This document shows positions 3,171 to 52,000 of a stretch of 64,000 nucleotides of DNA, piece by piece. The stretch lies in assembly GCA_036172245.1 (NCBI GenBank), contig JAYWIR010000059.1, positions 186,001 to 250,000 of the forward strand, in the 5' to 3' direction. Below the pieces are notes generated by a model. It made no database searches. It was not told the DNA's origin and saw only the letters and a list, made by a program, of their open reading frames with translations. The DNA comes from Raillietiella orientalis. Its lineage: Eukaryota. The stretch's first letter is position 1. Each line of letters opens with the position of its first letter. The position numbers were made by a program, and so were the translations under genes.

Positions 3171-4380
3171 TGTTTGCGTGTCAACACCGCCGGCTTCCAT
3201 CTTACGGCTTCGCTCTCAGGTGTGTCACTGCTCTGGTGAGAGCGAACACGTGGATTTCCTGCCGCCCTGCGAACATTCCGGCCTGGCGGTAGGAAAAAGT
3301 GAGGACGTGGGCTCACTCACCCAAACCCCGTCGGAAGTTACCCGCTGCCAAGAGTTTCAGAAGAACAGCGGAAGAACCCTGGAGACGGTGGGTAGTGAGC
3401 TGACCATGTTGGCCTACCCAGCAGCCACCCCCTTCGCCTCAGCGGTGTCCTCCGCTATCGAGGTACATGGCACCTGCCTACCGGCGAAGTGGGAGGTTTT
3501 TTGCGAGATCCCGCAGGAAACCTATCGGTGGCTGGACACCGCATCAGCCAGCTGACTCGGCAACAGCAAGAACCGTCTCCAAAGGACTCGAATGTTGGGG
3601 CGAACTCTTCTCCATTCAGCCCGAAGAGTTATAAGTGCCTCCCGTATTTATGGACAGCAAGCTGCTTCCCCTCAAGTGGCAGCAATCAGCGCTGCTGATA
3701 CTGCACTGGGGTCTTTCGAGCAATGCGCGACGGCACCACTGGACGAGGGGAGGCGCATCGTCGAACTTTATCGTCGAACTGTGCCAGATGTGGAAAGGAG
3801 ACATTCCCCCACCTCATAGTGCAGTACGTTGCCCTCCGAGAATTGTGGGAACGTTTCTCTGCGTCCCTTTCGCACCCCGTAGACGATCCCAGAGACTCAT
3901 TGAGGCCTCTCTTCGTGCGGCACGCCATGATGCGTGCAGCAACAATCTCAGCGCGGTGTCGTCGCGGCGAAGTGCGACGCCGAGAGAAGCCGGAGAAACA
4001 GGGAGGGCTGTCTTGCACTCCACCGCTTCCTGCGGATGGCTTCGAGGTGACTCCACCTGGAAAGGAAGGAAGAGGAACTCTCCAACATCCTTCAACCGAT
4101 GCGGAAGCCCCACCTATCACAAAATGTGATCCCTTCCCTCCCCCCAACTAATTTTTGTTTTTTTGTTGTTAGTTATAGTTTGTTTCCATTTTCTATTTTT
4201 GTTTTATCCCCCTTCCCCTTCGTGGACGTGATGGACCTCTCCGCTCCCCCTCTTCTTTCCAGTGTAACAATTGGAATTGGTAGGCCATCGGCTCCATCGA
4301 TTCCTGTTGGAGAATAAACATCTGGCGCAGCCGGGTGTGGAATCACAGCGTTTTTTTTCACTCGACTTTCTGTAAAAAGT
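3170..4380 (+). mobile_element. 5'-truncated Tx1/L1-like copy: post-RT region, zinc knuckle, 3' UTR
   Basis: LVRANTWISCRPAN, AKWEV, LPLKWQQSALLILHWGLSSNARRHHW and CARCGKETFPHL align with ORF 8478-9719. Frameshifted. Confidence 0.85.
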
Positions 4381-4689: not shown

Positions 4690-7600
4690 AGACATGAAAA
4701 AAACTGGCAAAGCCAGCTTCAAGAACGGTAGAAAGGCTGACCTGAAGCCTGCCAAAAAGGCCACGTCGACCACTTCGCCTGTGGAAACGCAGACTGCCGA
4801 AGTGGAAGGAGTGGATCCTGGCTGGCAAATGGTCAGCTACAAAAAGGGAGACAAGAACAAAAATGAATCGACCCCCAAAGAAATCGCCAAAAACGCGATT
4901 TCAAAACGTAAAAAATGCACGCTTAACCTGCAGAGCATTCCCGTCGCCGCGAAGCAGTGCAAAATGGACGTTTCCATGTGCAACAGCGCTGACAGCCCGC
5001 GACAGTGAAAATAGTCATCGAGGGTTGCGGTGAGGGGGAGAGCTTTTGTCAAAGCGGCAGAGGAGCTGGCCGCCATGCTTCGGCAGTCTGCCAAGGCAGC
5101 CGACAGACGTCTGATCTCCAGGAAGGAGTCCGAGACCTCGGGCTCCGACCCAGTGGTCGGAAGCTCACCACCCGCGTCTGCACCTTCGCGAAATCCTGGA
5201 CGGAAGTTCAGGAATCCCAGGAGGATCGACTCTTCCAAAGAAGGCGAATCTTCCGGAAACGAGGATGTGGCGAAAGTGGGAGCTCAGGACTCGTCTCCTG
5301 ATACTCTCCCACTCTCAGACGCTGTGTAGCCCATGGAAGCGGAAAGGATCGCCGAGGTGCCCCCAGCCGCAGGGTCCGCAAGCAGCACCCCGCCTGGAGC
5401 GGAGTCGGGAGGCGCAGCATCATTTTCCCAGCAGTAATGTCGGGACTCGCCACCTGCCGTCGACTACGCGTTGCTGGCTGGAACGTTAACGGGCTACGCG
5501 ACGATGGCAGAAGACGAGACACAGCTGCCGCCCTGCAGCCCTTCGACCTCGTGCTTCTGCAGGAGATCCACCAGATCTCTGAAGAGATCGAAAAGATAGC
5601 GGGCGGTCAGCTCTTGTGACGTTGCTGCTCCTGCCGGTCATGCGGGTTCGCCTTCCTGCTCAAGCCTGCCCTGAGACGCGCGGTATAAAGCGTACGTTTC
5701 AACGAGGCAGGTCGAGTCGGTCAAATCATCTTCAGGTAGACAGACTCGATCGATCTCGTTACGAACGTGCACGCACCGAGCAGTGGCTGCGCTCGCACGG
5801 CCTAGAGAACCTTCCGTGTCCTGAAGTGCGACTGGCTGGCGGAGACAGGCGTGCGTGATAACCGGTGATTTCAACATCCGACAGTGCAACAAGAGACAGC
5901 ATCGAGTTTCAGAGGTGTCCGCGAACTGCGGCAGGTGCGGGGCGACGGAGTCCATCCTGTACATGCTTTTGGACTGCGGTACTCTTCAAAGACTGTGGCG
6001 GAGGCTGGCAACAGCACCCCTGCACCAGGAGGATACCGTAAGAGACGTGATGAGGCGGTTCTTCGCTGCGAACGGTCGCTCGACGGGAGCAATCATCGCA
6101 ACCACGGGTTGCCTCCGGGCTATCGTTTCGGCCCGAGAGGTGCAGGAAATCACTGCGCATAGGAGGGAAGCACCAAGATGGCAGCTACCCACATCGGGGA
6201 AGCTATAAGGTGGCCTCACCTGGAAGAAGAAAATAAGATCACCGGCATCCATGGTCGGATGGCTTGGAACGGTGAACCCGATGATCCTTATCCTCTCCTT
6301 CCATTCATCTCTTCTGTGTGTGTGTGTTTTCGTATTCCGCTTCCCACACGCTCCGTAACTTTCTTTGTGCTTTTTCTTCTTTTTTGTATTCCGGTGAATA
6401 CGGAGCGTCACCAAAGATCCCTGCCCCTTCCCTCCCATCTTGACTTTTTTTTTGTGTGTTGCCCCCTAGCCTCTACCCGGTCTACTACCGTTCCGGTCAT
6501 TCCATTTTTTCGGCCTGCGTACCGGAGGACTCTCCCTTTCTTCTTTTGTTGTCTTGGCTGGGAACTGTGTTCCCGACCGGTTTGAAATAAATGTCCCGGT
6601 GTAACCGGGCAACAAATTTCAATATCTACCTGCTGTCAGGTGCGGCGAAGAAAGAGGCCACCCCGGTTAACGAGATCTATGCTGCGATGCACGCGTCCAA
6701 CTTAGCCGGGGAGCTCGGGATGGAGGGAAGAGTGGACCACGTCTTCCTCGACGAGCACCTGAGTTCCCACTTGGGGAGGCAAGGAAAGATGCCGTCCACG
6801 CTCTCCGACCACTCCCAGGTGGAACTTGAAACTCTTTCGCGTAACAGGGGACCCCCCCTCTCAGGCGTGGTGACTTCCGAGGGACTGACTCAACACGTCA
6901 GGTGCAGAGGAACGCCTCCGCGCGTTCTTGAGAGCTTTCAGAGTGCAGACGCTCGACGACTAGGATGATTTGAGGGTCTCGGTCCGAGAGTTCTGTGGGC
7001 ATTTACCCTTGGACTGTCTCCCAAGAGGATTTGACGAGGGTGTTCGGAACGAAAGATTGTACTTGCAGGTTCATCGCTACACCCGAATACCGGACATCCG
7101 CCGACTAGCAGAGTCAAAGCCAAGCCTGGCAATCCGAGTCGGCCAGCCAGCTGGACGATGACGATCAGGAGCACTCAAACCCTGCGGCGATAAAGCGCCT
7201 AGTGCTCAGTTATTACTCCTTCCTCTATGCCAGGACACCTCCGGAGCGGGGCATCTCTCGGTTCTCGCTTCCGGAAGGCGCCACAGCGATCATGAAGGAG
7301 GAGAGAGTACTCCCCGACGAGCCTTTCACGAAGAGTGAAAGCATCACCACAATCGGGAAGCTCAAGAGACGGAAGGCACCAGGGAAAGACGGCCTGCCTG
7401 CGGAGTTCTTCCAATGCTTCGCGGCGGAGCTCACCTCCCTGGTGCAGCGCTTAACCCTGCTGATTTGGGAGACGGGAGACGCTTCCACCACCTTTCGATC
7501 GGCACAGATGCGTCTCCTCTCAAAGGGAGGGTACTTACGGAACCTCAGCAACTGGCGTCCGATCACCGTGTTGAACGCGGGCTCCAAGTAGCTGGCGAAA

Positions 7601-9928
7601 CTTTGGTCTGAGTGATTAGGGCAGCTTCATTAGCCCGGAGCAGAATTATGCTGTTCTCGGGAGGAGTATGGATCTCAACCTGCTCTTTGCGGACACCTGG
7701 TTCGGGTTCCAGCGGAGAAGAACGAACAAAGGGAACACGGGCGGCACCCCGAATTCCGGGAAATCCTCCGGTGGTAAGCGAGTTGGTCGGAAAGGAGAGG
7801 GGGCTCTTGCGGTAGAGTCTACTTGCGGAAAGCATCCGACTGCGTCGACCAGAATCTCCTGCTGGAGCTTCTGGGACGCTTGGGCTTCCCGGCCTCATTA
7901 TTGGCCTATCTGCGCTCCAGCTGGCGCGACGCGCTCATCAACGTTTCTTTCAGCGGGCAGACCGTGCACGGCGTGCCGGTGCAGCGTGGGATCCGGCAGG
8001 GAGACAGCCTGATTCCCTTGCTCTTCAGTACCTACTTCGAGTTGGTACTAAGGACGTACAGGGAAACTCTGGCGCGCCTGCCGCACGACTGCGCCGGTAC
8101 GCCGGCGATTTCAGCGTACGCGGACGACCTCCTGCTACTGCTCCCTATGTCCACTCCGGCTTCGGTGGTCGAGAAGTTCTTCGACCTGCTGAATCGAGGA
8201 ACTGGGCTTACGGTGAACAGGGCGAAGTCGTCCGTGATGCCAGTTGGTGCGGCGTGGGCAGGGCAGCAGGACTGGGTCCGTTTGGGGATCCCCACGGTGA
8301 GGTACTCCAAGTACCTTGGTGTGCCGTTGGGGGACTACTCCCCTGCAGAAGCGTGGTCCGGCTGCCTTCAAAAAGTAGAGACGGCTATCGGCCCGTTCCG
8401 AGGCGGCAGGTTTTTCCTGCCTGAACGGGCCGCGGTTTGGAACATGTTCGCGGCTCCTCTCCTCCGTTCCCTGCTTTTTGTTTGCCCCCCCCACAGAGAG
8501 GATCAAAAAGCGAACGAAGGACCTCCTCCGTATCGCCCTTTGGGGCAACGGGAGGGCCCGAGTCCGCTTGAAGGACTTGTGCGCTCTGCGTCGGGACGGC
8601 GGTCTCGGCCTCCTGACATTGGAGCGGCTGGAGCTTCAGCTCCAGTTTCGGATGACGGCCGTTGTGCAAGAGTTGTGGTGCACCTGCTGGTGCATCCCTG
8701 CACGCCTCCTCGTCAAGAAAGCCACCGGGAAGATGGGACTCACGTCCTTTCTTTCACTCCATCGCTCCCGCATCAACCGCTGTGGGCTCCAGCTGCGGAG
8801 GGTTGCTGCCTTGGTTCGGAAAAACTACGGATGGATCACCTGTCGCCCCGCGAACGGTTGTGCCTGGTTGCAGGAAACCGTTTGCACGTGGGCACAGTGC
8901 GGCATGCAACGCGCCCAACAGGAACGACGGTTCCTGTTTGGGTGCTACAGAAGTTGCACGCTCCGAGGGATCCTGGAGGATCCGAAGAAGCGAGCGTGGT
9001 CAGGAAGAACTCCCCTCGCTGCTGCTCTGGCCTCCCTAGTGGAAGATCAGGACAGCGATGTTGCGGCGAAGTGGGAGGTTACAATAAAAATCTCCGGGAA
9101 GGAGAAGAAGCAGAGAGAGTGGAAGACGGGCCAGCTAACTGATGCTGCGACCCCGAGTACGCCTCCTAATGGACTTCTGCGCTGGGGCGCGATGCTCGTT
9201 GTTCCGATTGAACATCTGAAGTGGCCCTTGGCGCTCATGAACACTTCCACCCTCCCCTTAAAGTGGCAGGAGTCGGCTCTACTGTTGCAGCACTGGGGAC
9301 TCCCCTGCAACGCCCGCCGACACCACTGTACCTGGGGAGCGGTCGATCCCAACTGTGTTAGGTGTGGGAAACGGGAGTCCCTCCCCCACCTCCCAGTGGA
9401 TTGTGTTGCCCTTCGGCCCCTTTGGTTCCGCTTTGCCGCGGCCATCGGTATCCCCTGCGGCAACCCCAGGGACGCATTGAAAGCCCTCTTCGTGGCCGAC
9501 GCCCTTCGGCCAGCGGCCTCGATAGCAGCCTTGTGCTGCCTTCGCGAGATCGTCGCCGCATGGAGCACGGCTACGGGAGGACCACGCGATAAGGATCCCA
9601 TCCAGGGCGCCGCCCAATTCATGAAAAGGGCGTCGCGATGGCCCCACCTGGATCCGCGAATGCAAGAAGAGCTTGCCGGCGTCCTGAGAAGGATGCAACG
9701 GCCCTACCAGCTACAGTGATCCCTTCCTATACCCTCCCACCTTTTCTTTTTGTTTAGTTTTTTGTTTATTCCCCTTTCCCCCTGCTGCCATGGTGGACCG
9801 TACCGGTCTGCGAACCGGTGACCCGGTAGGCTCTGTGTTTCTTCGTGCGTGGCTGGAGCATTGGTCCAGCCACTGCACTTTGTAAAAGTTTATTTTTAAA
9901 TAAACGCTCGGCGAAATTCGGGTGAAAA
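4690..9928 (+). mobile_element. Near full-length Tx1/L1-clade non-LTR retrotransposon (possible ORF1 tail, APE, RT, zinc knuckle, 3' UTR), inactivated, with a nested insertion at 5879-6615
   Basis: APE: LRVAGWNVNGL...DLVLLQEIH (5460-5570), ITGDFN (5858-5875), RVDHVFL...LSDHS (6730-6815). RT: KAPGKDGLPAEFF, NWRPITVLN, LRKASDCVD, RGIRQGDSLIPLLF, SAYADDLLL (~8110-8137), KYLGVPL. Then GGLGL and NCVRCGKRESLPHLPVDC. Stop at 9717-9719, AATAAA at 9899-9904. Internal stops (~6961-6968, 7589-7591) and frameshifts. The ORF1 assignment of 4690-5430 is weak. Confidence 0.92.
5879..6615 (+). mobile_element. 5'-truncated Tx1-like copy nested in the APE domain of the larger element
   Basis: QCNKRQHR...NCGRCGATESILYMLLDC...RWPHL, a pyrimidine-rich UTR, AATAAA at 6586-6591 and a terminal hairpin. 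Flanked by ATTTCAACATC (5868-5878) and ATTTCAATATC (6616-6626). Confidence 0.85.
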
Positions 9929-9946
9929 TCGAACGCTTTATGCAGA

Positions 9947-19614: not shown

Positions 19615-21209
19615 AGATTCCTCCAGTCCTTTTTTTTTCTTTTGTGGTTCTCCAAGTGCTGAAGAACCGCTCGTCTCCTTAGGGGAGACCCACGAAGCTC
19701 TTCAACGTCGTCCACGCCACCCGGGGTGCGTGTCAACTCTTCAAGTTAGGTTCATCACACGGTCACGCCGGGTCCTTTATTATAAAAAATAAACATATGT
19801 GTAGGGCCATCGGCCCTACATTGTCCGAAAATGTTCGGAACCTGCCGAATAACACCACTCACACAGGCTGGCGACGTTCGCCTCGGCAGAGGAGGGGGAA
19901 AGAGCAAACAAAAATAAAAATAAAATAAAAATCAATAAAAAAGACTCTGGAGGGCACGGGAAGGAATCACTGTCCACTGGAGGGCGTCCCTCTCGCGCCG
20001 TCCTCCTCTCGCTTAGCTCCAGGCTGCCACAATCCCGCGTAGGCAGCAAGGAGCTGCTGGGGATGCGGCAGACGAAAGGGCATCGAGCACGAAGAGGCGC
20101 TTCGTCACCTCCCTGGGATTGCCCGTCGGTGCACCAAGGGCTGTTTCGTAACGCGACCACAAGGGTCGGAGGGCAACACAGTCTACAAGTAGGTGCGGGA
20201 GTTGGCATTCCCGTTCCCCGCACCTGCAACAGTTGGGGACCACTGCCCCCCGGATCCAGTGAGACCGGCGGGCGTTGCTGGGGAGGTCCCAGTGCAGCAG
20301 CAGAAGTGCCGACTTCTGCCACTTCAGGGGGAAGACCCGGTTGTTCTTCAGAGCAGGGGATCACTCGAGGTCTTCCTGTGTGATTCCCCACAGCAGCTCA
20401 GCAGATCCTCAGCAGAAAGATTCATTCGTTCCATAATGGAAATTCTTCTTTTCTGTCTTCGCAGCTATTTGACACGGTCCCACGCCACCCGAGGGTGCGT
20501 GTAACTCGTCAAGATGGGAATGCCCCGGGAGGAGACCTCCCTATGATACCAGGAAAGGGCTCGGAGTCCGTTCCTCTCACGCCTGGGGAGGGATCCCCGG
20601 AATGGGATCATCTCCACCCTGGTCATCTAAGAAGGGAATCTCCTTCCTTATTCTCTCCGGAGGGACCCCCAGAGGGGTTCTCTCCATTTTTCTTTTCCAA
20701 AGGAAACCAGAAAAGATACGCTAGGAGGAATTTCTTCTCCGGAGGGATCATCCGCAAGGGAACCTCTTCTGGTTTTCTCCTCTGAAGAGAACCCCGAAGG
20801 GATGCTTCCCAATTTTCTCTGAAGGGGCGCTCCCCGAAGGGAGCTGCACATCTCGTCACGCTCTGGAGGGGTATCAATCCACCAGCTCCATGATACGAGA
20901 TGGAGGTCATACCCCCGAGGAAGGAAGGGGGGGGAGTAACGGATCCATTCGTACAACCAGAGGGCTCCTTGATTCCTGAAAGGACCCCGGAGGGTCAACT
21001 TGCAATCCTGGTCACTCAGCGGGAGCATCCCGCTTCCACCAGTGCTGCGCCCGAAGCTCGTAGGCCAACCATAGTCACCCTGCTAGTGAGACTCGAAACC
21101 CACGACGCACCCACGTTCTCGGCGGCAATCCTCCTCTTGGGGATTCGAACCCGCGACGCTTTGGTACCACGCGCGGTGATCCACCATTGACGATTGCCAT
21201 GCGGCTCCC
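19615..21209 (-). mobile_element. tRNA-headed SINE-like repeat, copy 1 (interrupted by a Tx1-like insertion at ~19750-20470)
   Basis: Head reads GGGAGCCGCATGGC...AATGG...GTCGCGGGTTCGAATCCC (B-box at 21140-21152). Colinear homology to 45160-45920 over the whole body and again beyond the insertion (19615-19745). Confidence 0.75.
19750..20470 (-). mobile_element. 5'-truncated Tx1-like copy (zinc knuckle, 3' UTR, terminal hairpin)
   Basis: FPLKWQKSALLLLHWDLPSNARRSHW...NCCRCGERECQLPHLLVDCVALRPLWSR, close to ORF 8478-9719. AATAAA at 19776-19781. Confidence 0.88.
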
Positions 21210-24200
21210 AACGCGTGCCAAACCTGCCTTCCCCCCTACTTGGAATCATGAGATCCTCCCGGGATTATCGTCCTCCCTGACTCATCAAAGATTCATCAAA
21301 GCTGGAAGTATTCATCGGTCGAGTTTGGTCTTTCTTCTAGACCAGTGAAACTCATTACATAATGTTATGAGTTATTGTTTCCAGGAAAGTCCAGGAAAAA
21401 AAACTGGATCAACTATAACGGGAATGAAAACGAACATCTTTCTTTCAAAACCAACTTTCTTGCTTACCGCTAGAACTATAAGCGAAAGGTTTCAAGAATC
21501 CAAACGAAGTTGCATGTTGAATTACTTCTTGTGTAGCAACCAATCTCTTTTCTTAAATACAGATCAAAAATTAAAAAGCACAAAAAAAAACGGGCGATAA
21601 TTGCATTCAGGATAGAAGGCCTCCTGAAATACGAAATTGGCCGTTAAGAATTCCTCAACAAGAGAAAGTTACACATTTTCCTGCACGACGTAGTACCAAC
21701 TGATTTCGATGTAATTTGGGTGTCCCTTGAAATACAAGGAAAAATGAAATGAAAATTACGCTGACTAGAATTTCCAGCGAGGGCCACCAGAAATGTGTTT
21801 TATTTCGAGTGCAATTCTATTCCTTACATGCAAGTTCAAAGAACGTTCCTCTTACAAACGGTTCTCCTTTCGTTACAATTTTTATTTATTTTTGTACAAA
21901 ATCGAAATGCTTTCACAAGCACGAACCATTGCCGATGTTAGGAATAGCCTGTGTTTAGAAAGGTACGTAAATCCAGCTTCATCGGTACCTTTCCGTGGAA
22001 AATTGGGCTCCACGCACAATCATGGAATTACGCAGCCAACAGATAGGTCAATGCCATTCCAGTAATAAAAAGACACAACGCCGTGCAAGAATCATTTTGC
22101 GACAGATCTTGGATGATTTTCGTTCCTGACAGGTACATCTTCTCTATGGGATGCTTGGTATATGTCTTTTCTTGATCGTCATCTGATTCGGACGGTGCGT
22201 AGCATTTACTTCTCTGTGGAGAGGATCTTTTGCAAAGATCTTCATTTTTAGTCGTTTTCGTCTTTCTTATAGATTGCAATACCTCTCCTCTAGGTCCATG
22301 ACGTGTTTTTTCTACAGTTCTTTTTAATTCGCAGATATTCATCATTGGAATGAATTCAGATGATTCGTTGGATTCTGCATCCGATTCACAAGATATAGAC
22401 TTTCTTGTCATTTCCTCTGGAAAACAGAGACAAGAAAGACTAATGAACACACAAAACTCAGCAACAGGAATTGAAATTTGATTGCGCCTTCATCGTTGAT
22501 TGCTTACAACACATTTAAGGAAATGTTTCACGTTCCTTGTAATTTTTCAACATGCAAACAAGTTTGATCTTTTCTCTAAAGATAAAAAAGGTACATCTTT
22601 GAAAATGCTGTATTCTACAAAGCATAACCCAATTGAACTGTTCAAATAAATTGGGACAAAGTGCGTGAAACTTTTCGTGACAAATTCAAGGATCACCTGT
22701 ATTAGGGAGCAATTTCACTCTGGTAGCACTGCAGTATTTTACGTAATGATGTCAAATGAGAATACAGCAGTTTGAACGCAAATCGAAATGAAAGAACAAG
22801 AAGAAACACAGAACTGTAGGTTACAAAAGGTGCACACACTTTTTTTTTTTTATGTAGCATGCATTCGAGGTATTGTTGGACATTATATTATTGCATTTGT
22901 AAATATTTTTTTTATTCAGCATGCATTCAAAGTTCACGTACTTTTTTAAGGCCTCATACGTTCTTGAATTAAAAAAAAAAATGGGATATTGATTGATCAC
23001 ATGCATCATATTTATGAACTATGCACTTCACATGCGATATGAAAATACACTGAGTTGAAGCGTATCATTGAGATAAGCAATTCGTATTCATTGCTTATAA
23101 GCAGGTATTTGTAACAAAAACACCTTTTGCTTCGTCTAAGGCTAAACTCAATATCATCCACGTCCGCTTGTAGAGTTGACCCTTGAACGAACGAGGGTTT
23201 CCACAAACCTCGATGTGTACCAGTTCTGGTACGACACGAACCGTGTGGGGTCAGAAGTGGCTGTTCTACTCACAACCTGCAACTAATGTAACCAAGCTGT
23301 TATACTGCATTCAAAGGAAAAGAATTGAAGAAAAAGTGTGAATCCACCGCTGAGGAAAATTCTCCATCAGTGGATAATTGCTGCTATAGGAGTGGAAAAA
23401 CTCAAGCATGCTAAGATCCTCACTCCCAGAATCAAACTGGGCATATTGCAGGAAGCAAGATCCACATCCGTGGACCTTCGGCTCTCTAGATACCAACCCA
23501 ACAGGAGAAAACTGCGAAAAACGAGTAAGCCACCTACTCTCTGTCACGACAATCAAGAACGTCCACAAATGAGATTCAGAATTCATGTCTATGCATTTAT
23601 TATCCATCCATCCTATTGTAATTTTCACTTCGTCTGATACTTCTAATATCGATGAAAGGGCAGTTTGAATGAATTATTTTTTTTTTGTTCATACCGAAGA
23701 TTCAGATTCCTCATTCGAACTTACAGTATGATTAGGAGTTATCCATTAAGAGAATCGGATTGTCACACTGCATTCACCGTTCGCATGTTTGAATTTCGAT
23801 CACATGCCACTTAGTGATGTGGATTGTCAAATCGAACACATCGTATCGTAAGCAATACAACACGGCACTACTATATTGTGACAATATTGCCATGAAGCAA
23901 GAAAACACAGGAAAACCACAAAGATATTTTCCTATGTCTCTGGTAGCTTCGTGTATCATTTTAGAATATATCCAAAATAAGATCACCTGCGGCTGGAAAC
24001 TTCCATGCTTTTTTCCTGCTCTCTGTTGCTTCACCCGAAGCAAATTACCCTACTTCCAAGGTCAAAAAATGGCTTCCTGAGACTGTAATGCTATATTTTC
24101 TGATGCTTTCTATGCTATTAACGTTTTCATTTGTTATGTTGGAAGTCATTCCATGAAAATATTTCATATTCCAGTCTACTATGATACATACATAAATGTT

Positions 24201-32900: not shown

Positions 32901-35900
32901 ATTTTCTTAAAAACATTTTTTAAGGAGCTATTTGTTTCATTTTCACATGAAATGCTTTGTTTTGTTCATGGCTCACTTCACAAAACATGATTTATTTTCT
33001 CCCATCAATAGTTTCCGATTATTGAATAATTATTGGTTAAATTATTAATCTTGAAATGCTAGTTTCCTCCTAGTTTTCAAATGCATCAATTTGTATTTTG
33101 ATTTTTTAAATTAAATTTTAATGGCTTCTTTTGTTGTAAATGTGTAATCTAATGTCTAATTTGGTCATGAGATTTTCAACTCCCTATTTAAATGCATAAA
33201 AATTCAAAATACACTACCAAACTCATTGGATTGAAATGCAATGTTCCCATTTTCACTTTTGCTGCATCAGTTTGCAGATTCTTAATTACTATTTTTAGAG
33301 AATAAAGCATGTTTCTCTATGAAATGGAAGATGAAGTATATCTCATTCTTCTATAAATAAAACAAGCATAATGCCTACTATTCTTATCATGAATAAAAAT
33401 CCAGTATATCACAATTTCTACTTAGAATTTCACTGCCAAGCACAAGCACTTATTTCCAATGTTTACTTCTGACATACTCATGTACCCTTGACTGAGGATA
33501 TCTTGGAGAACAGTTTTCATTTTGCATCTTCACTTTAGTGTAGCAGTAATGGCAGATTAGTTTCCCTGGTCATTCTATCCCTTTTTGTCATTTTCATGTA
33601 ACTCAAAACTACTATGAACAGTGAATCTACAGCAAAATTAAAGGGTACCCAAACATTTCTCTAATGATGGAAAAGTTTCAAAATTCCTCAACAATTACAG
33701 CTTTTTATTTTCTATTCTTTTGGACTTAACAAATCCTTTCTTGGTTTTCACTTCTAGCTATATACCTCAAGAGTTCTCATACATGCTAAACTTACAAAGC
33801 ATTGCAGTTATCATATTTATTTTTAAATTACAACTTCAAATCACAACCTTTTCCAAGGTTATAGCATTAAATATGACAATGCCTTTACGCAATTTCTTAA
33901 AATAATTTTCTTAGGATGATTCACAGTAGGTTCCAATTAGTAATTTCTTGATTAAGCCAACCTAAATGGAAAGCGAACTTACGGGGATACTATCTGCTAT
34001 GCAATTCCCAGTTATAAAGCAAATTTGGGGCAAGATTGATAACAGAAAATTGAAATGTACATTCAATAAAAATCACGAAATCTTTGAATAGGTGGATATA
34101 ATAATCAAATGAATCAAATAAAAATCAGAAATTATTTTGAAAGCATTCTAGCTGCAGCCTTAATTAGAGTTGGCTGCAGGCCAACTCTAATTAAGTCCAA
34201 CTCTGTTGGCCTTAATTAGACTATTAAAGTTTGATAGTTGGTGTTTTTTTAACAAACACAGAATAGTATAACAAAAACTGATGTTTAACCATATTGATTA
34301 AAAATGCATAAAATAGCATAAAAGAATGCATAGATGCAAATACTTCGAGTGTGGAAAATTAACAAGACTGGGAAATTACTAATATCATTACATACACAAT
34401 AAAATTTCAAACAAGAAATGACTACTGCTTTACTTACTGGTGCAAAATGCGAAAGTAAATCAGAAAATTTTGAGTCTGCATCTTCAAATTTTCGCAATGC
34501 TAAGGTTTGCAAGATCTGTGCAATTTGCATAAGATTAAAGCGAGCCACTATGCCTATAGGGGCATCACACACAAGCCCATAAAGTTCTGGATTAACTATG
34601 GCTGGGCAAAGGAAAAGAGCAAAAACAAGATCTATGCAAAATGCATTCACTTCTTTAATAGCAAGCTTGTTACAAACAAAAAGTGTATTTCTCGCATTTT
34701 TGATGAGACACAGTATGTTTTTTGGAAAACAAAACATGCTATGTTTGATTCCATGGATGAAAATGTTAGTGATCTGAACTAATCTGTTTACTATATATGT
34801 TTGATTTCCAATTCTGCAATTGTGTTCATTAGGTACTTTTCTATTTTTGATATGGGGTTGGTACTGCTCTTCATTAAGTGAGGGATCAATGTCCATATAA
34901 TACTCTTCCATCAGCAGATTCAGGATTGGCTCACTAAGAGAAGACGTAAGAAACAGTTTTGCAGAAAACAGACGTTCACTAAAAATCTTGTAAATTCTGC
35001 TGAATGAGCAAGTACCATGTCTTAGGAGCTTTCGAGGGTAATCAGAAGTAACCAACTGTACTTCCATCAGATATTTCAATAATTGCACAACATAATTTTC
35101 ATCTTGTGGAAACAGACAATTACAGTAGACAGTCATCATCACCACAGATGATATGGAATGAGTATACTTAAATGAATGGCGATCAGCAACCAGGAGACAA
35201 GAAGCTAAGTATCTTGGGTTTTCTCGGATATTTCGGATTAAATCAGAATATAATGACACCTAGAATACACAGATAAAATTCATTCACATACTTCTTGAAC
35301 TCGAAGATAATTCTTTAAAATACTAATTTTTGCTGGTAACTAAAATATGATCAAAGTTTTCTTTATAAATATAATCAAAGATTGCTAATAGTTTATGTTA
35401 TGTTATGCCATTTTTAATGTTACTTTGATATTGATATTAAGCCCATTTGATATTGATTAACTATATATTTTACTTGAGAATACAGTCTTCAATTCACTCA
35501 TTAGATGCTTACAATATAATTTGATTGATAAATAAAATATCCAACATAATAGTACATGATAACAACAAATGTATTTTGCTGATTAATGGGATTCTTGATA
35601 ATAAGATTCATTTCAAATATTTCATTCACACCCTCTTGCATTTTAAAATCATAAAAAGGATCACATATGTGTTCATAAGTTAAAGTAAACAATTCATTTA
35701 GGAAAAATGAAAATCTAAATCCAATGCATAAACAATAACAGCACATATTATTCCAAATTTTTGCAGGTTAAACACACTGTGATACAAACTGTGTATTTAC
35801 AGTGAATACATTTTGTGCATACAGTTTCATTTGAAGCCTTAATTTGATAAAAATATACTTAAGTTTTGAAGATAAATGCAACTGAGCGTTTATGTGTTAA

Positions 35901-45159: not shown

Positions 45160-45920
45160 CGCCAGCGTTAGCTTCCGTGTGTCTCCGCGCGTGGTATCCA
45201 GCGTTGCGGGTTCCAATACCCGCAAAGGATTGACATTGAGAAATGGATGCATGGTAGGTTTCGATTTCCCCTGCGGGATGACGCTGGTTGACCTATTCGG
45301 ATGAGGCACTCATGGGAGTCAGAAACCAGATGCTCTTGTTGACTGGTTGAGATTGGAAGTTGACCCTCTGGAGTCCTTCCAGGAATCAAGGAGTCGGTTT
45401 CCTTCAGAGTTCCCCTCGGTGGTGAAAATGGTGCCCTGTTCGGGCGGGAGACCCTCCATCGAGTACCATGGAGGTGCTTGATACCTCTCCAGAGTGTGAA
45501 GAGTGACCTGCTCCCTTTGGGAGAGAACCTCTAGAGAAAATATGGAAGCATCCTTTCGAGGTTCTCTTCAGAGGATTAACAAGGAGCGGTTTCCTTGCAG
45601 GTTCCTCCCGGAGAAGAAATGAGGATTACTTCCTCAGAGGGTCCCTACAGAGAGAATCAGGAAGAAGTTCCCTCCATCGTGAGGGAACCTTTGGAGACAA
45701 TTAGGGCAAGAGGTCTCTTCGGCGTTCCCTCCCAAGCGTAAGAGGAACACCCTATTCTATTCAAATTCATAGGGTGGTCCCCTCCCGGGTACTTTCTATC
45801 TTGAAAACAACACGCATCCTCGAGCGGCAGGAACAGTGTAAAGACCTTCGTGTGCCGTCAGACGAACGGTTCTCGAGTGTTTAGCGACCCCCCTCCCATA
45901 AAAAAGGCTGGGAGGAAAAC
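45160..45920 (+). mobile_element. tRNA-headed SINE-like repeat, copy 2 (uninterrupted, more decayed head)
   Basis: CCGCGCGTGGTATCCAGCGTTGCGGGTTCCAATACCCGC (T-arm-like, 45206-45223). Colinear with the reverse complement of 21180-20470 plus 19745-19615. Confidence 0.75.
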
Positions 45921-49089: not shown

Positions 49090-52000
49090 TCAAAATTGAA
49101 AATACATTTCAGCTTGCTGATGAGTTTCTGAATCAACAGTAGAAAGAACATCTTGGTAGCTAGAATGCCCCAAATACGCATGCAAGTCATTCAACTAAAA
49201 TTAAACTATTAATGTCAACACCAACATGGCCAAGATAGAAACCTGTTGCTGCACATAAGTCCTCAAGTCAACTGTGTACACTGGATCCTGACAATCTAAG
49301 GCATCCATCCTTCTGGCATGCTCTGTTGGTGTGTCTGCATCATCATCATCTTCTGACTGTCTGGTTTTCCCTACAAGTGTGCTGCTTCTGCTATTAGAGT
49401 TGTTACAGATGAATGCTACATACTCTGGCAAGGTAGTGTCTTCCTGAGCCACATCATGAAGTACTTCAACAATCACTAACAACAAGGCACAGAAATTATG
49501 CAGAACAATTGGCCAATGTGAACCCAGAAGAGAAGCCAATGCCAAGGCACACAGTTTTCTAGCCTGCAGTTTGATAATCAGGTGCATATTATCTGTCCAA
49601 AAAATCAACAGATTTCCCAGTAATACATCACTAGGGACATGAGAAGCAGCTTCCTCAAGGATTTGAAGCATACAAACAGGAGAATGAAGAATGATTCGAG
49701 AAAGTAATGTCAACTGCAAGGAGAGGATGTTGGGTGAGATGTCACCTGCATGTAAGCACTGTAACACATAATGGAAAATAGGTTTGAAAGCTTGAACAGC
49801 ATCAGCAACTATGCAACGCATAGTCAAGTCTACTGTATACAGAATGGTGAAAACACCTTCAGCCTTGAGATCTGGAAGGAGTCCCAAGATGCAGTTGAGA
49901 AACATGGTGCTGCACTGTGAAAGAAACAATGCTGGACTAAGCAACAGATATGCTTGCACCACTTGCATACATGCTGTCCACGTCTCTGAGCAGCAATTTT
50001 CTGAAGTAGAAATAAATATTAGAAAAAAAAAAGGCAGTTACACCTACCTAAGAGGGAGGGAAGATTGGCAAGCAACTGTGCCAACGCACATGTGATAGCA
50101 GGGGTATTATGTAAAATGGCAAGCCAAAGTGCCAATCCATCAGGAAGAAGATAAATGTGAGCTGCCTGAGCAGGGTCCATACAAAAAGCTACAACAGGCA
50201 GCAGAAAAGCATGAAGTTCTGTGCTGGAGGGTCCAAGCACATGAACAAGTTGAACAAGTGAACCAAGAATAGCACAACGCAACAGGTCATGTTGATCTGA
50301 CTCTGCCCACAAAACAGGCAAGCAATGCAACAGATGCTGCAGATAAGGTTGCATCCTTGAACCAAGGCGCTCCAGCATCACAGATAATACATTAAGAACA
50401 TGCATCTTTGTGTCGCACTCTTGTGCTGCCTGTAGCAGTTGCACAAGCAATTTGCAAGCTGCATCAGCCAAAGGTAAAAAACTATCAGCTGAGAAATCAA
50501 AGTCATCAATGGCAATCCGTAACACTTTAGCAGCAGTCAACCGGACACCAAAATTTCTAATGGGTACTAGCTCTTCCAACAGAGCTTTATGCAACATGGG
50601 ACGTAGTGATGAAGACAGACGTACACTACTCCACTCGCCAATGAGCCACAGGGCCCTGCGAGATAGTATAGGGTTTAAAGTGGGCAACTCAGGTAGTAAT
50701 TGTTCCTGGAACCATTGGTCAAAATCCACATCATCATAAAGATCAAAAGCTGCTAGTCCAAGGGCATGATACATGGCTTCCCGTGCCAACTGCTGATTTT
50801 CCAGACAAGGACTTCTGACCTGTTGCAAATAAGAAAGCAATAAAGGTCGCAAAACATCACAATGCTCCTTAAGTAATGCCAAATAAAGGGCTTCAGTGCA
50901 CGGTTGAAAACTATAGCGCCATGAATCCCCACCCTCTTCAATAGAGCATCCTTCAGGATCAGCAATCCAGGATTCTATCTCTTGATCAGATAGCAAAAAG
51001 AGAAATTCAACCAGATGCTGGCCCAATGCCAATACTAAGTTAGAAGTGAAAAACTGATGCAACATTTTGTGAGCTATCAATGTACGAGGATCCTTAGTAT
51101 CTGCAGAAATACAAAAATCCCAGACTCCAAAAAACAGATACATTCCCACTTACCCTTCGCTTTAGGACGACGGAATTGAGGACATAACAGAGCTGTCTTC
51201 ACTAAGTTGCACATGTGAAGTAACACTTTCCTAGGTAAGGAAGCAGACTGCCCCAATATACAGGAGATGGCTAATTGTAAACTCTCTTCTAGCAAGGGCA
51301 AAAAAGCAAAAGGCTCTTGCTCCAGTACATCACCTAATATTTTGCAGTGAAGCAACACATACTTCTCCCAAAATGTGCTGTGATTATCTGTGAGAAGCAA
51401 AACACTTTGTCTTGCATTGCAACTTCCACTTACTAAGACGAAGAAGTTCCAATAACTTATGCAAAATAAGTTGAAGAAGGCTAACAGTTTCTGGTGATTC
51501 CAGCATTTTGTGCAAGTCATTTACCAGCAGATGTCTCAATACACGGAGTGTAAGCAATGCTGAATCAACACTTCCATGACCTTGCAACCAAGCTTGGTGT
51601 TGTGCAAGCCACAGTTGTTGCAGAAAACCCAACAAAGATATAGTGAGGTCATGGAAGGCTGTGCGGTCTCCTGGTAATCGCTTAGATCCCAAAGCTTTCA
51701 CAACATGAAGTAATGTGCTTAGGGCTCTCTGCTGCATGAGTTCATCAGTCACTTGGATGGCTCTCAACAATGAAGGAAATAATTCTGGCCATCCCATAGG
51801 ACCTTCAAGACGAGCAACCTTAGCAACAGCCACAGCCAACTGCAGAGCAATAGGAGCCACTGGTTCATGAAGATACCCACAAAGATTCTGTTTCAGCTGG
51901 TAACGTTCAACATCACTGATGGCACTGAATACAGGAACATTAGATTAAAAGATAACAGCTTATATCTTTACATACTTAGGAGCAGATTTCCTCCAGTATT

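Follow-up and report, generated by a model that had tools for sequence, protein, structure and literature searches.

Two dispersed repeats with a tRNA-like head and a body of small hairpins raise the question of what kind of element they derive from and whether the fold of its RNA has been kept by selection. Both lie in the 64,000-nucleotide stretch of DNA that was analysed as a whole (the window). They are related copies, as the initial annotation had stated, with 69% identity over 461 nt and 75.7% over 668 aligned positions. Copy 1 (20433..21218, minus strand, 786 nt) is an old member of O/B type, 84-85% identical to the consensuses of subfamilies O and B, and it is 3′-truncated, its end lying about 45 nt short of the true 3′ end of the family. 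Copy 2 (45161..45919, plus strand, 759 nt) is an old O-type member with an internal deletion and 81% identity to the O consensus; its end corresponds to the A-rich region ahead of the terminal stem-loop. A tree of copies placed both of them in O. A third piece of the family, an O-type 3′ part that was missed in the first reading of the sequence, was found at 19633..19750 on the minus strand (81.5% identity over 119 nt, E 2e-26). Between it and copy 1 lies a 3′ remnant of an L1/Tx1-like LINE (19751..20400, minus strand), which is outside the family. A search for target site duplications (TSDs) of at least 10 nt returned none in copy 1 or copy 2. The window copies are dead and decaying neutrally.

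That the two copies represent a dispersed family was borne out by the copy number. An 18-mer from the body, searched with at most one mismatch in the 210-Mb genome, gave at least 1,708 matches, and a control pattern gave 1. A genome search with copy 1, in which 40 of 5,595 candidates were scored, listed 49 matches. From the fetched loci, 147 distinct copies were extracted, of which 132 were 5′-complete and longer than 600 nt; these are the best matches to chosen queries and not a random draw. Five consensuses were built from 114 of the 132 copies, after the exclusion of 18 that were intermediate, duplicate-like or badly extracted. The youngest subfamily, C1 (20 copies, 1,091 nt), has a mean identity to its consensus of 97.3%. 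The values are 93.8% for C3 (13 copies, 1,078 nt), 92.5% for A (51 copies, 828 nt), 86.8% for B (8 copies, 867 nt) and 80.5% for O (22 copies, 821 nt); subfamily D, added later, comprises 14 copies with a consensus of 986 nt and a mean identity of 93.7%. The young subfamilies are 0.83-1.09 kb long. The consensuses of the major groups are 73-88% alike, with whole units gained and lost. Two patterns of the family had no match in metagenome contigs, and one had none in viral contigs, collections that are ill-suited to animal repeats. Two rearrangements were seen among the loci. One is an old copy, about 1.2 kb long, in which the 5′ domain is duplicated (L261, G000:C6:1675150-1677400); the other is a young copy that, along with its flanking sequence, has an inverted duplicate at a distance of 75 kb (L122/L125, G000:C4:1161402 and 1236590).

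The ends of the element were determined on the extracted copies. It starts with GCCC, and position 1 is the start in 59 of 90 copies and lies within three bases of it in 71 of 90. At the 3′ end of complete copies a stem-loop precedes a short T-run and an A-tail, and this arrangement is the same in old and young groups. TSDs of at least 10 nt flank 17 of 40 C-group copies, compared with 0 of 300 mismatched flank pairs, and only 1 of 50 A-group copies. An LTR element or solo LTR was rejected, as the GCCC start, the A-tail and TSDs varying from 10 to 16 bp differ from the TG...CA termini and the short TSD of fixed length of such elements. The description as a SINE-like retroposon was upheld by a sharp 5′ end, A and B boxes, an A-tail and TSDs, with no LTR or LINE continuation.

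A candidate partner for mobilisation was sought in the window itself. An L1/Tx1-like LINE that is very abundant (5,669 candidates genome-wide) has a frameshifted copy at 7109-9930 (plus strand), and besides the remnant next to copy 1 there is another at 3635-4340 (plus strand). Full-length relatives of this LINE have endonuclease and reverse transcriptase domains in proteins of 1,173-1,217 aa; its placement as L1/Tx1-like is our reading of the domain order. The LINE ends in AATAAA and a small conserved hairpin, without poly(A). Comparison with the SINE gave no common tail and only two weak matches of 32-37 nt, and this LINE is not supported as the partner. Of the 293 loci with the SINE tail, 16 were examined; where LINE sequence lay upstream, it was joined at different positions and in both orientations, and at none of the 16 did a LINE carry the tail as its own end. 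As regards SINE-LINE chimeras or targeting of LINEs, 16 of the 320 flanks had LINE sequence no more than 100 nt away, again in both orientations. These data bear on the proposal that the family is a solo LTR, the UTR of a LINE, a DNA transposon or a once-coding repeat that has decayed. LINE fragments do adjoin some copies, and ATG frames of 137-173 codons are present in some consensuses (shuffle p 0.03-0.09). Yet the joins are of varying position and orientation, homology to the LINE stops at the two weak matches, the copies carry A-tails and TSDs of variable length in mostly unique flanking sequence, and the reading frames are not kept from one subfamily to the next or among young copies, so that a coding function was rejected. 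We regard this proposal as very improbable.

Several other observations on the surrounding sequence were made. LINE 3′ ends joined directly to SINE pieces, in both orientations, were seen in the window at 19633-20400 and at three further loci (L246, L252 and L255). Two such joins fall just before the terminal stem-loop of the SINE; these loci were chosen for the SINE, which biases the frequency. At two loci that are 96% identical over 8 kb (L230, G000:C18:3684300-3692300, and L231, C60:633000-641000) the LINE recurs head-to-tail every 5.55 kb or so, next to an opposite-strand LINE copy. Homology to rRNA was no better than E 0.03 (two loci, 3′ half of the LSU). The window also contains, on the minus strand, genes for importin-11 (49201-51944; 45-47% identical at best to echinoderm and mammal proteins, a level that marks the host as a divergent animal) and a RasGAP-domain protein (34285-35259), both with unusually large exons.

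The head of the element was scored against A- and B-box consensuses which we take to be the standard ones. Copy 1 has an A-box-like motif with two mismatches at 21197..21207 (minus strand, element position 12) and a perfect B box at 21141..21151 (minus strand). The B box of copy 2, at 45209..45219 (plus strand), has two mismatches. All six consensuses carry the A-box-like motif (two mismatches) at position 12-13 and a B box (0-1 mismatch) at 56-59. Compared with 30 of the 62 listed genomic tRNAs, the six consensuses gave best matches of 63-69% identity over 62-78 nt. Relative to 60 best-of-30 shuffles, the match lies above all of them for C1, C3 and D, is borderline for A and O, and does not exceed the shuffles for B. 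A parental tRNA-Thr(AGT), suggested by one copy, was rejected, as Gly, Arg, Ser and Glu tRNAs score equally on the consensuses. ARAGORN detected no tRNA in the 64-kb window, and in structure predictions the head takes up long hairpins in place of a cloverleaf. TTTT is absent from the plus strand of all six consensuses, where 1.7-4.4 occurrences are expected. The A and B boxes and the lack of TTTT are indications that the source copies may be transcribed by Pol III. Three copies (L152, L096 and L099) end in a T-run of 4-5 without an A-tail or TSD, and these are possible transcription-competent or source loci.

Many copies lack the 3′ end of the family. Truncation was found in 16 of 40 C copies and 41 of 50 A copies, and a 16-mer from the tail had 293 matches genome-wide compared with the 1,708 of the body pattern, the two patterns differing in sensitivity. 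Eight of the 16 truncated C copies were scored with TSDs, several of which overlap the last bases of the element. In 34 truncated C/D copies, the tailless ends fell at positions predicted to be unpaired more often than expected (0.56 vs 0.43, p 0.006) and favoured A-rich positions (p 0.0004), with the caveat that A-rich targets can pull alignment ends. The 3′ ends of the A group were not enriched in unpaired sites (p 0.79). Truncated ends in unpaired A-rich sites match the tailless retroposition by internal priming set out in the part of PMC5322556 drawn on here. One further copy (L269, G000:C33:2183363-2184295) is truncated at consensus position 779 and has its own A-tail and a 14-bp TSD, which suggests a shortened, adenylated RNA.

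The organisation of the body was analysed next to the claim that it is an array of UNCG-type hairpins. All structures given below are predictions. The element consists of a structured 5′ domain of 260 nt, the hairpin units, an A-rich region, the terminal stem-loop, the T-run and the A-tail. Its body holds 12-13 bulged hairpins that are related to one another and recur about every 40 nt. Each unit is built on a purine/pyrimidine lower stem of 4-6 bp with a 5′-side bulge of 1-3 nt; the upper stem and the loop vary, and a purine-rich linker completes the unit. The spacing is 28-52 nt save for one gap, with offsets near 42-43 and 85-86. In copy 1 the array occupies 20515..21003 (minus strand), and intact lower stems remain at 20889-20865, 20808-20784, 20685-20659, 20615-20587 and 20574-20552 (minus strand). 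The UUCG hairpin at 20844-20829 and the hairpins at 20801-20792 and 20789-20780, all on the minus strand, are exactly as first described, and the other two named motifs were also located in copy 1. CTTCGG is enriched, with 3 occurrences in copy 1 against 0.35 expected and 4-6 in five of the six consensuses. Two of its three sites in copy 1, and not the single one in copy 2, close a stem of at least 3 bp, and only 1-4 UUCG loops per consensus close a stem. The enrichment in UUCG was thus confirmed, but a minority of units contain it, and the array is defined by the bulged hairpin with variable loops.

A hairpin finder designed on this pattern detected 12 units in C1 (0-6 in 20 shuffles; 2 on the opposite strand) and 7 in A (0-4 in shuffles; 2 on the opposite strand). 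The unit registers were then set by sequence homology and the arms were permuted. In C1, 51 of 52 lower-stem positions pair with their own arm, compared with 41.0 after permutation (p 6e-5), and in A the corresponding figures are 45 of 48 and 36.9 (p 8e-4). C1 shows 7 deviations from the modal stem, of which 6 are compensated; three of the 6 are perhaps one duplicated event. The bulge on the 5′ side is kept in 12 units, and some length changes between subfamilies appear, by eye, to add matching bases to both arms. Folding energy is less discriminating with respect to strand. The A consensus has a z of -3.9, no better than its reverse complement (-4.9). Relative to shuffles, copy 1 gave -3.0, and in a separate run -2.3 vs -3.5 for the reverse complement; copy 2 gave -2.7 vs -2.3. 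Folding of the decayed window copies is therefore above chance, modest and without strand bias. Rfam gave no match in the window at the gathering score, and five copies reached only E values of 0.29 or higher, far below the gathering score. No match to known RNA models (tRNA, 7SL, 7SK, IRE, ribozymes) was thus obtained; a supposed resemblance to IRE, 7SK, hammerhead or HDV motifs has no Rfam support.

Selection on the fold had been proposed from a pair of changes, CCT/AGG in copy 2 against CCC/GGG in copy 1, read as compensatory. This example did not stand. The change is not fixed in any subfamily, all six consensuses having CCC/GGG, and of 160 copies looked at, 77 could be scored at this hairpin, 29 of them with the consensus form and 2 with that of copy 2. 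Inserted copies show no protection of stems in general. Private double changes in the old group kept the pair 14 times and broke it 14 times. Private changes in inserted A copies occur at 0.057 in stems and 0.049 in loops, and in inserted copies as a whole they keep the pair in 407 of 1,132 cases, with a G-U to A-C ratio of 327:312.

The subfamily consensuses were examined with a polarised test. It was used in place of unpolarised covariation because the latter is biased when the structure is taken from one tip. Differences between A and C1 were polarised with B and O, and pairs were predicted on the reconstructed ancestor; 53 differences were assigned to the C1 branch and 16 to the A branch, and 25 were left unpolarised. 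The 53 fixed substitutions of the C1 branch break 5 of 161 ancestral pairs, compared with 14.4 expected, and none of 4,000 randomisations was as low. The depletion was also observed at a stricter threshold (1 vs 6.2 expected) and at a shorter span (5 vs 13.5 expected). After weighting by site mutability the expectation was 14.3 broken pairs (p 0.0003), and the depletion was present both in the 5′ domain with the head (3 vs 8.0, p 0.005) and in the array (2 vs 6.1, p 0.017). Forty neutral simulations of the pipeline gave ratios of 0.71-1.29; the observed ratio is 0.35. The A branch, with its 16 substitutions, showed no depletion (5 broken vs 6.2 expected), and for C3 at the strict threshold it was not significant (2 vs 4.4, p 0.15). 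The C branch is common to the A/C1, A/C3 and B/C3 tests, and these are not independent of one another. On the opposite strand, the first version of the test at span 120 was null (18 vs 17.2 expected), span 60 gave p 0.06 for the C1 branch and p 0.04 for both branches, and the mutability-weighted version was weakly positive (11 vs 16.2, p 0.045). Double compensations totalled 3, where 0.48 would be expected, and CpG decay could account for one of the 3; on the C branch there were 2 true ones (0.47 expected, p 0.08), and between A and C none lay in the array. The asymmetry between G-U and A-C alone was not significant (14:6, p 0.07), with registers that are partly fold-chosen.

It should be considered whether the hairpins arose as a by-product when a palindromic unit was duplicated in tandem, with correction between the arms at the DNA level, in an ordinary long SINE whose RNA is not under selection. 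Template switching between the arms of a palindrome can yield paired changes. The units are clearly duplicates, as their spacing indicates, the A branch is without a selection signal, and the window copies and the A consensus fold equally well on either strand. Against such an origin, pair-breaking changes on the C branch are about three times rarer than expected, a depletion not reached in any of the 40 neutral simulations and stronger on the transcribed strand than on the opposite one. In addition, correction of a palindrome should erase the bulge, which is kept in 12 units, and the stems of inserted copies are not protected. We consider the by-product origin unlikely. Selection on the fold of the source RNA is the probable explanation, a judgement that depends on one long branch and on predicted pairs. 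The proposal of the initial annotation thus applies to the source lineage, where the subfamily-level tests favour it, and fails for the dead window copies and for the compensatory example.

Another origin to be weighed is that the copies are retrocopies of one or a few host Pol III RNAs that provide an RNA-binding protein with a multivalent scaffold or sponge. BC1 and BC200, both mentioned in PMC2408557, would be the models for such host-functional Pol III RNAs. A fold constrained over about 0.7 kb, a repeated module with a constant lower stem and bulge, and the layout of head, A-rich region, 3′ stem-loop and T-run would all suit such a host RNA, and tailless copies are typical of cellular RNAs in the material consulted from PMC5322556. 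Subfamilies that are only 73-88% alike and gain or lose units would nevertheless be changing fast for an RNA the host needs; successive subfamilies of differing age are typical of selfish source genes, and the Rfam search gave no match. An origin from host RNAs therefore seems to us quite improbable.

We favour, with fairly good confidence, a non-autonomous retroposon (SINE) in which well-folded source RNAs founded the new subfamilies. Source copies would be transcribed by Pol III, and the RNA would be copied by the reverse transcriptase and endonuclease of a LINE through target-primed reverse transcription, with the A-tail or an internal A-rich linker as the priming site. Only those source RNAs that fold well would then have given rise to new subfamilies. 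What the fold is used for can be proposed by analogy. A hairpin next to an A- or purine-rich single strand may be where the LINE ORF2 protein docks and priming takes place, and may also stabilise a long Pol III RNA, a tentative proposal to which we give slightly less than even weight; binding of a dsRNA-binding protein or plain RNA stability are alternative uses. A modular scaffold, in which a bulged-hairpin module of about 40 nt was multiplied and kept by selection for the binding of a single LINE or host protein molecule per copy, is rather doubtful. If it were true, a multivalent RNA of 1.1 kb would owe its access to reverse transcriptase to avidity and would bring internal priming sites of its own, or else would act as a sponge for a host protein, and a eukaryotic retroposon would be built like a regulatory RNA with repeated sites. 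The capture of LINE machinery is much less clear for tRNA-derived SINEs than for Alu. This family offers a tractable case for what the structure of a SINE RNA is selected for because it has graded subfamilies (80-97% identity to consensus), modules that can be added or removed, a measurable signal of selection on the fold and frequent internal priming. Should the constraint fail to replicate on other branches, the family would be merely an unusually long SINE.

Finally, the family was compared with known systems. By the SINEBase criteria that were examined it is a SINE, save for the length of the youngest subfamilies: it is non-autonomous and non-coding, with no conserved frame; it is interspersed and non-tandem, with at least 100 copies; the best tRNA matches of the six consensuses exceed 60% identity over 60 nt; and TSDs and a tail point to mobilisation by a LINE. 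The length limit is 700 bp, or 1 kb as a working value. Subfamilies A, B, O and D measure 821-986 nt, and C3 and C1, at 1,078 and 1,091 nt, exceed both values. The 175 families listed in the consulted part of SINEBase range from 75 to 662 nt (PMC3531059), compared with 821-1,091 nt here, so the length of the family is beyond that range. Like the tRNA-derived SINEs described there, the family has a tRNA-related head, is dispersed in more than 100 copies, and has a body whose origin is not known and an A-rich tail. The CHRS SINE, as far as it is described in the same source, has an internal motif of about 20 nt in more than 10 tandem repeats, whereas here a bulged hairpin some 40 nt long is repeated (PMC3531059). 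A search of the published literature, with subscription papers and the sequences of Repbase, Dfam and SINEBase outside its scope, returned no description of the family.

Tailless retropseudogenes and SINEs are likewise 5′-complete and 3′-truncated, have TSDs and end in single-stranded A-rich sites; in the mammals treated in the consulted part of that work such copies are occasional, whereas they are apparently common here (PMC5322556). Alu, in the sections of the two papers used, also inserts with an A-tail and TSDs and has a stem-loop followed by an A-rich single strand, and in both elements the fold may matter for capturing the LINE protein (PMC11760393; PMC10830416). Human L1 ORF2p is described as holding a template stem-loop beside single-stranded poly(A), and unpairing of the stem-loop modestly lowers activity and shortens the products (part of PMC10830416). 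The Alu fold is inherited from 7SL and its protein, SRP9/14, is known, whereas the body of this family is without an Rfam relative or known ligand (PMC11760393, as far as consulted). The plant SB1 element and other tRNA-SINE RNAs resemble the family in a head that has ceased to fold as a tRNA, in bulged stem-loops and in a proposed structural constraint; the account used describes three stem-loops for SB1, whereas more than a dozen short paralogous ones are present here, together with a lineage-level test of constraint (PMC2408557). SB1 RNA is bound by dsRNA-binding proteins according to the same portion of that paper, and such proteins are candidate partners here too (PMC2408557). The principle of a constrained SINE RNA structure is not new because such a constraint has been proposed before (PMC2408557) and compensatory changes in LINE-derived tails are on record (PMC4824008). 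The present family is an unusually long SINE with a hairpin array that was probably under selection, and its young subfamily and the polarised test are what the present analysis adds.
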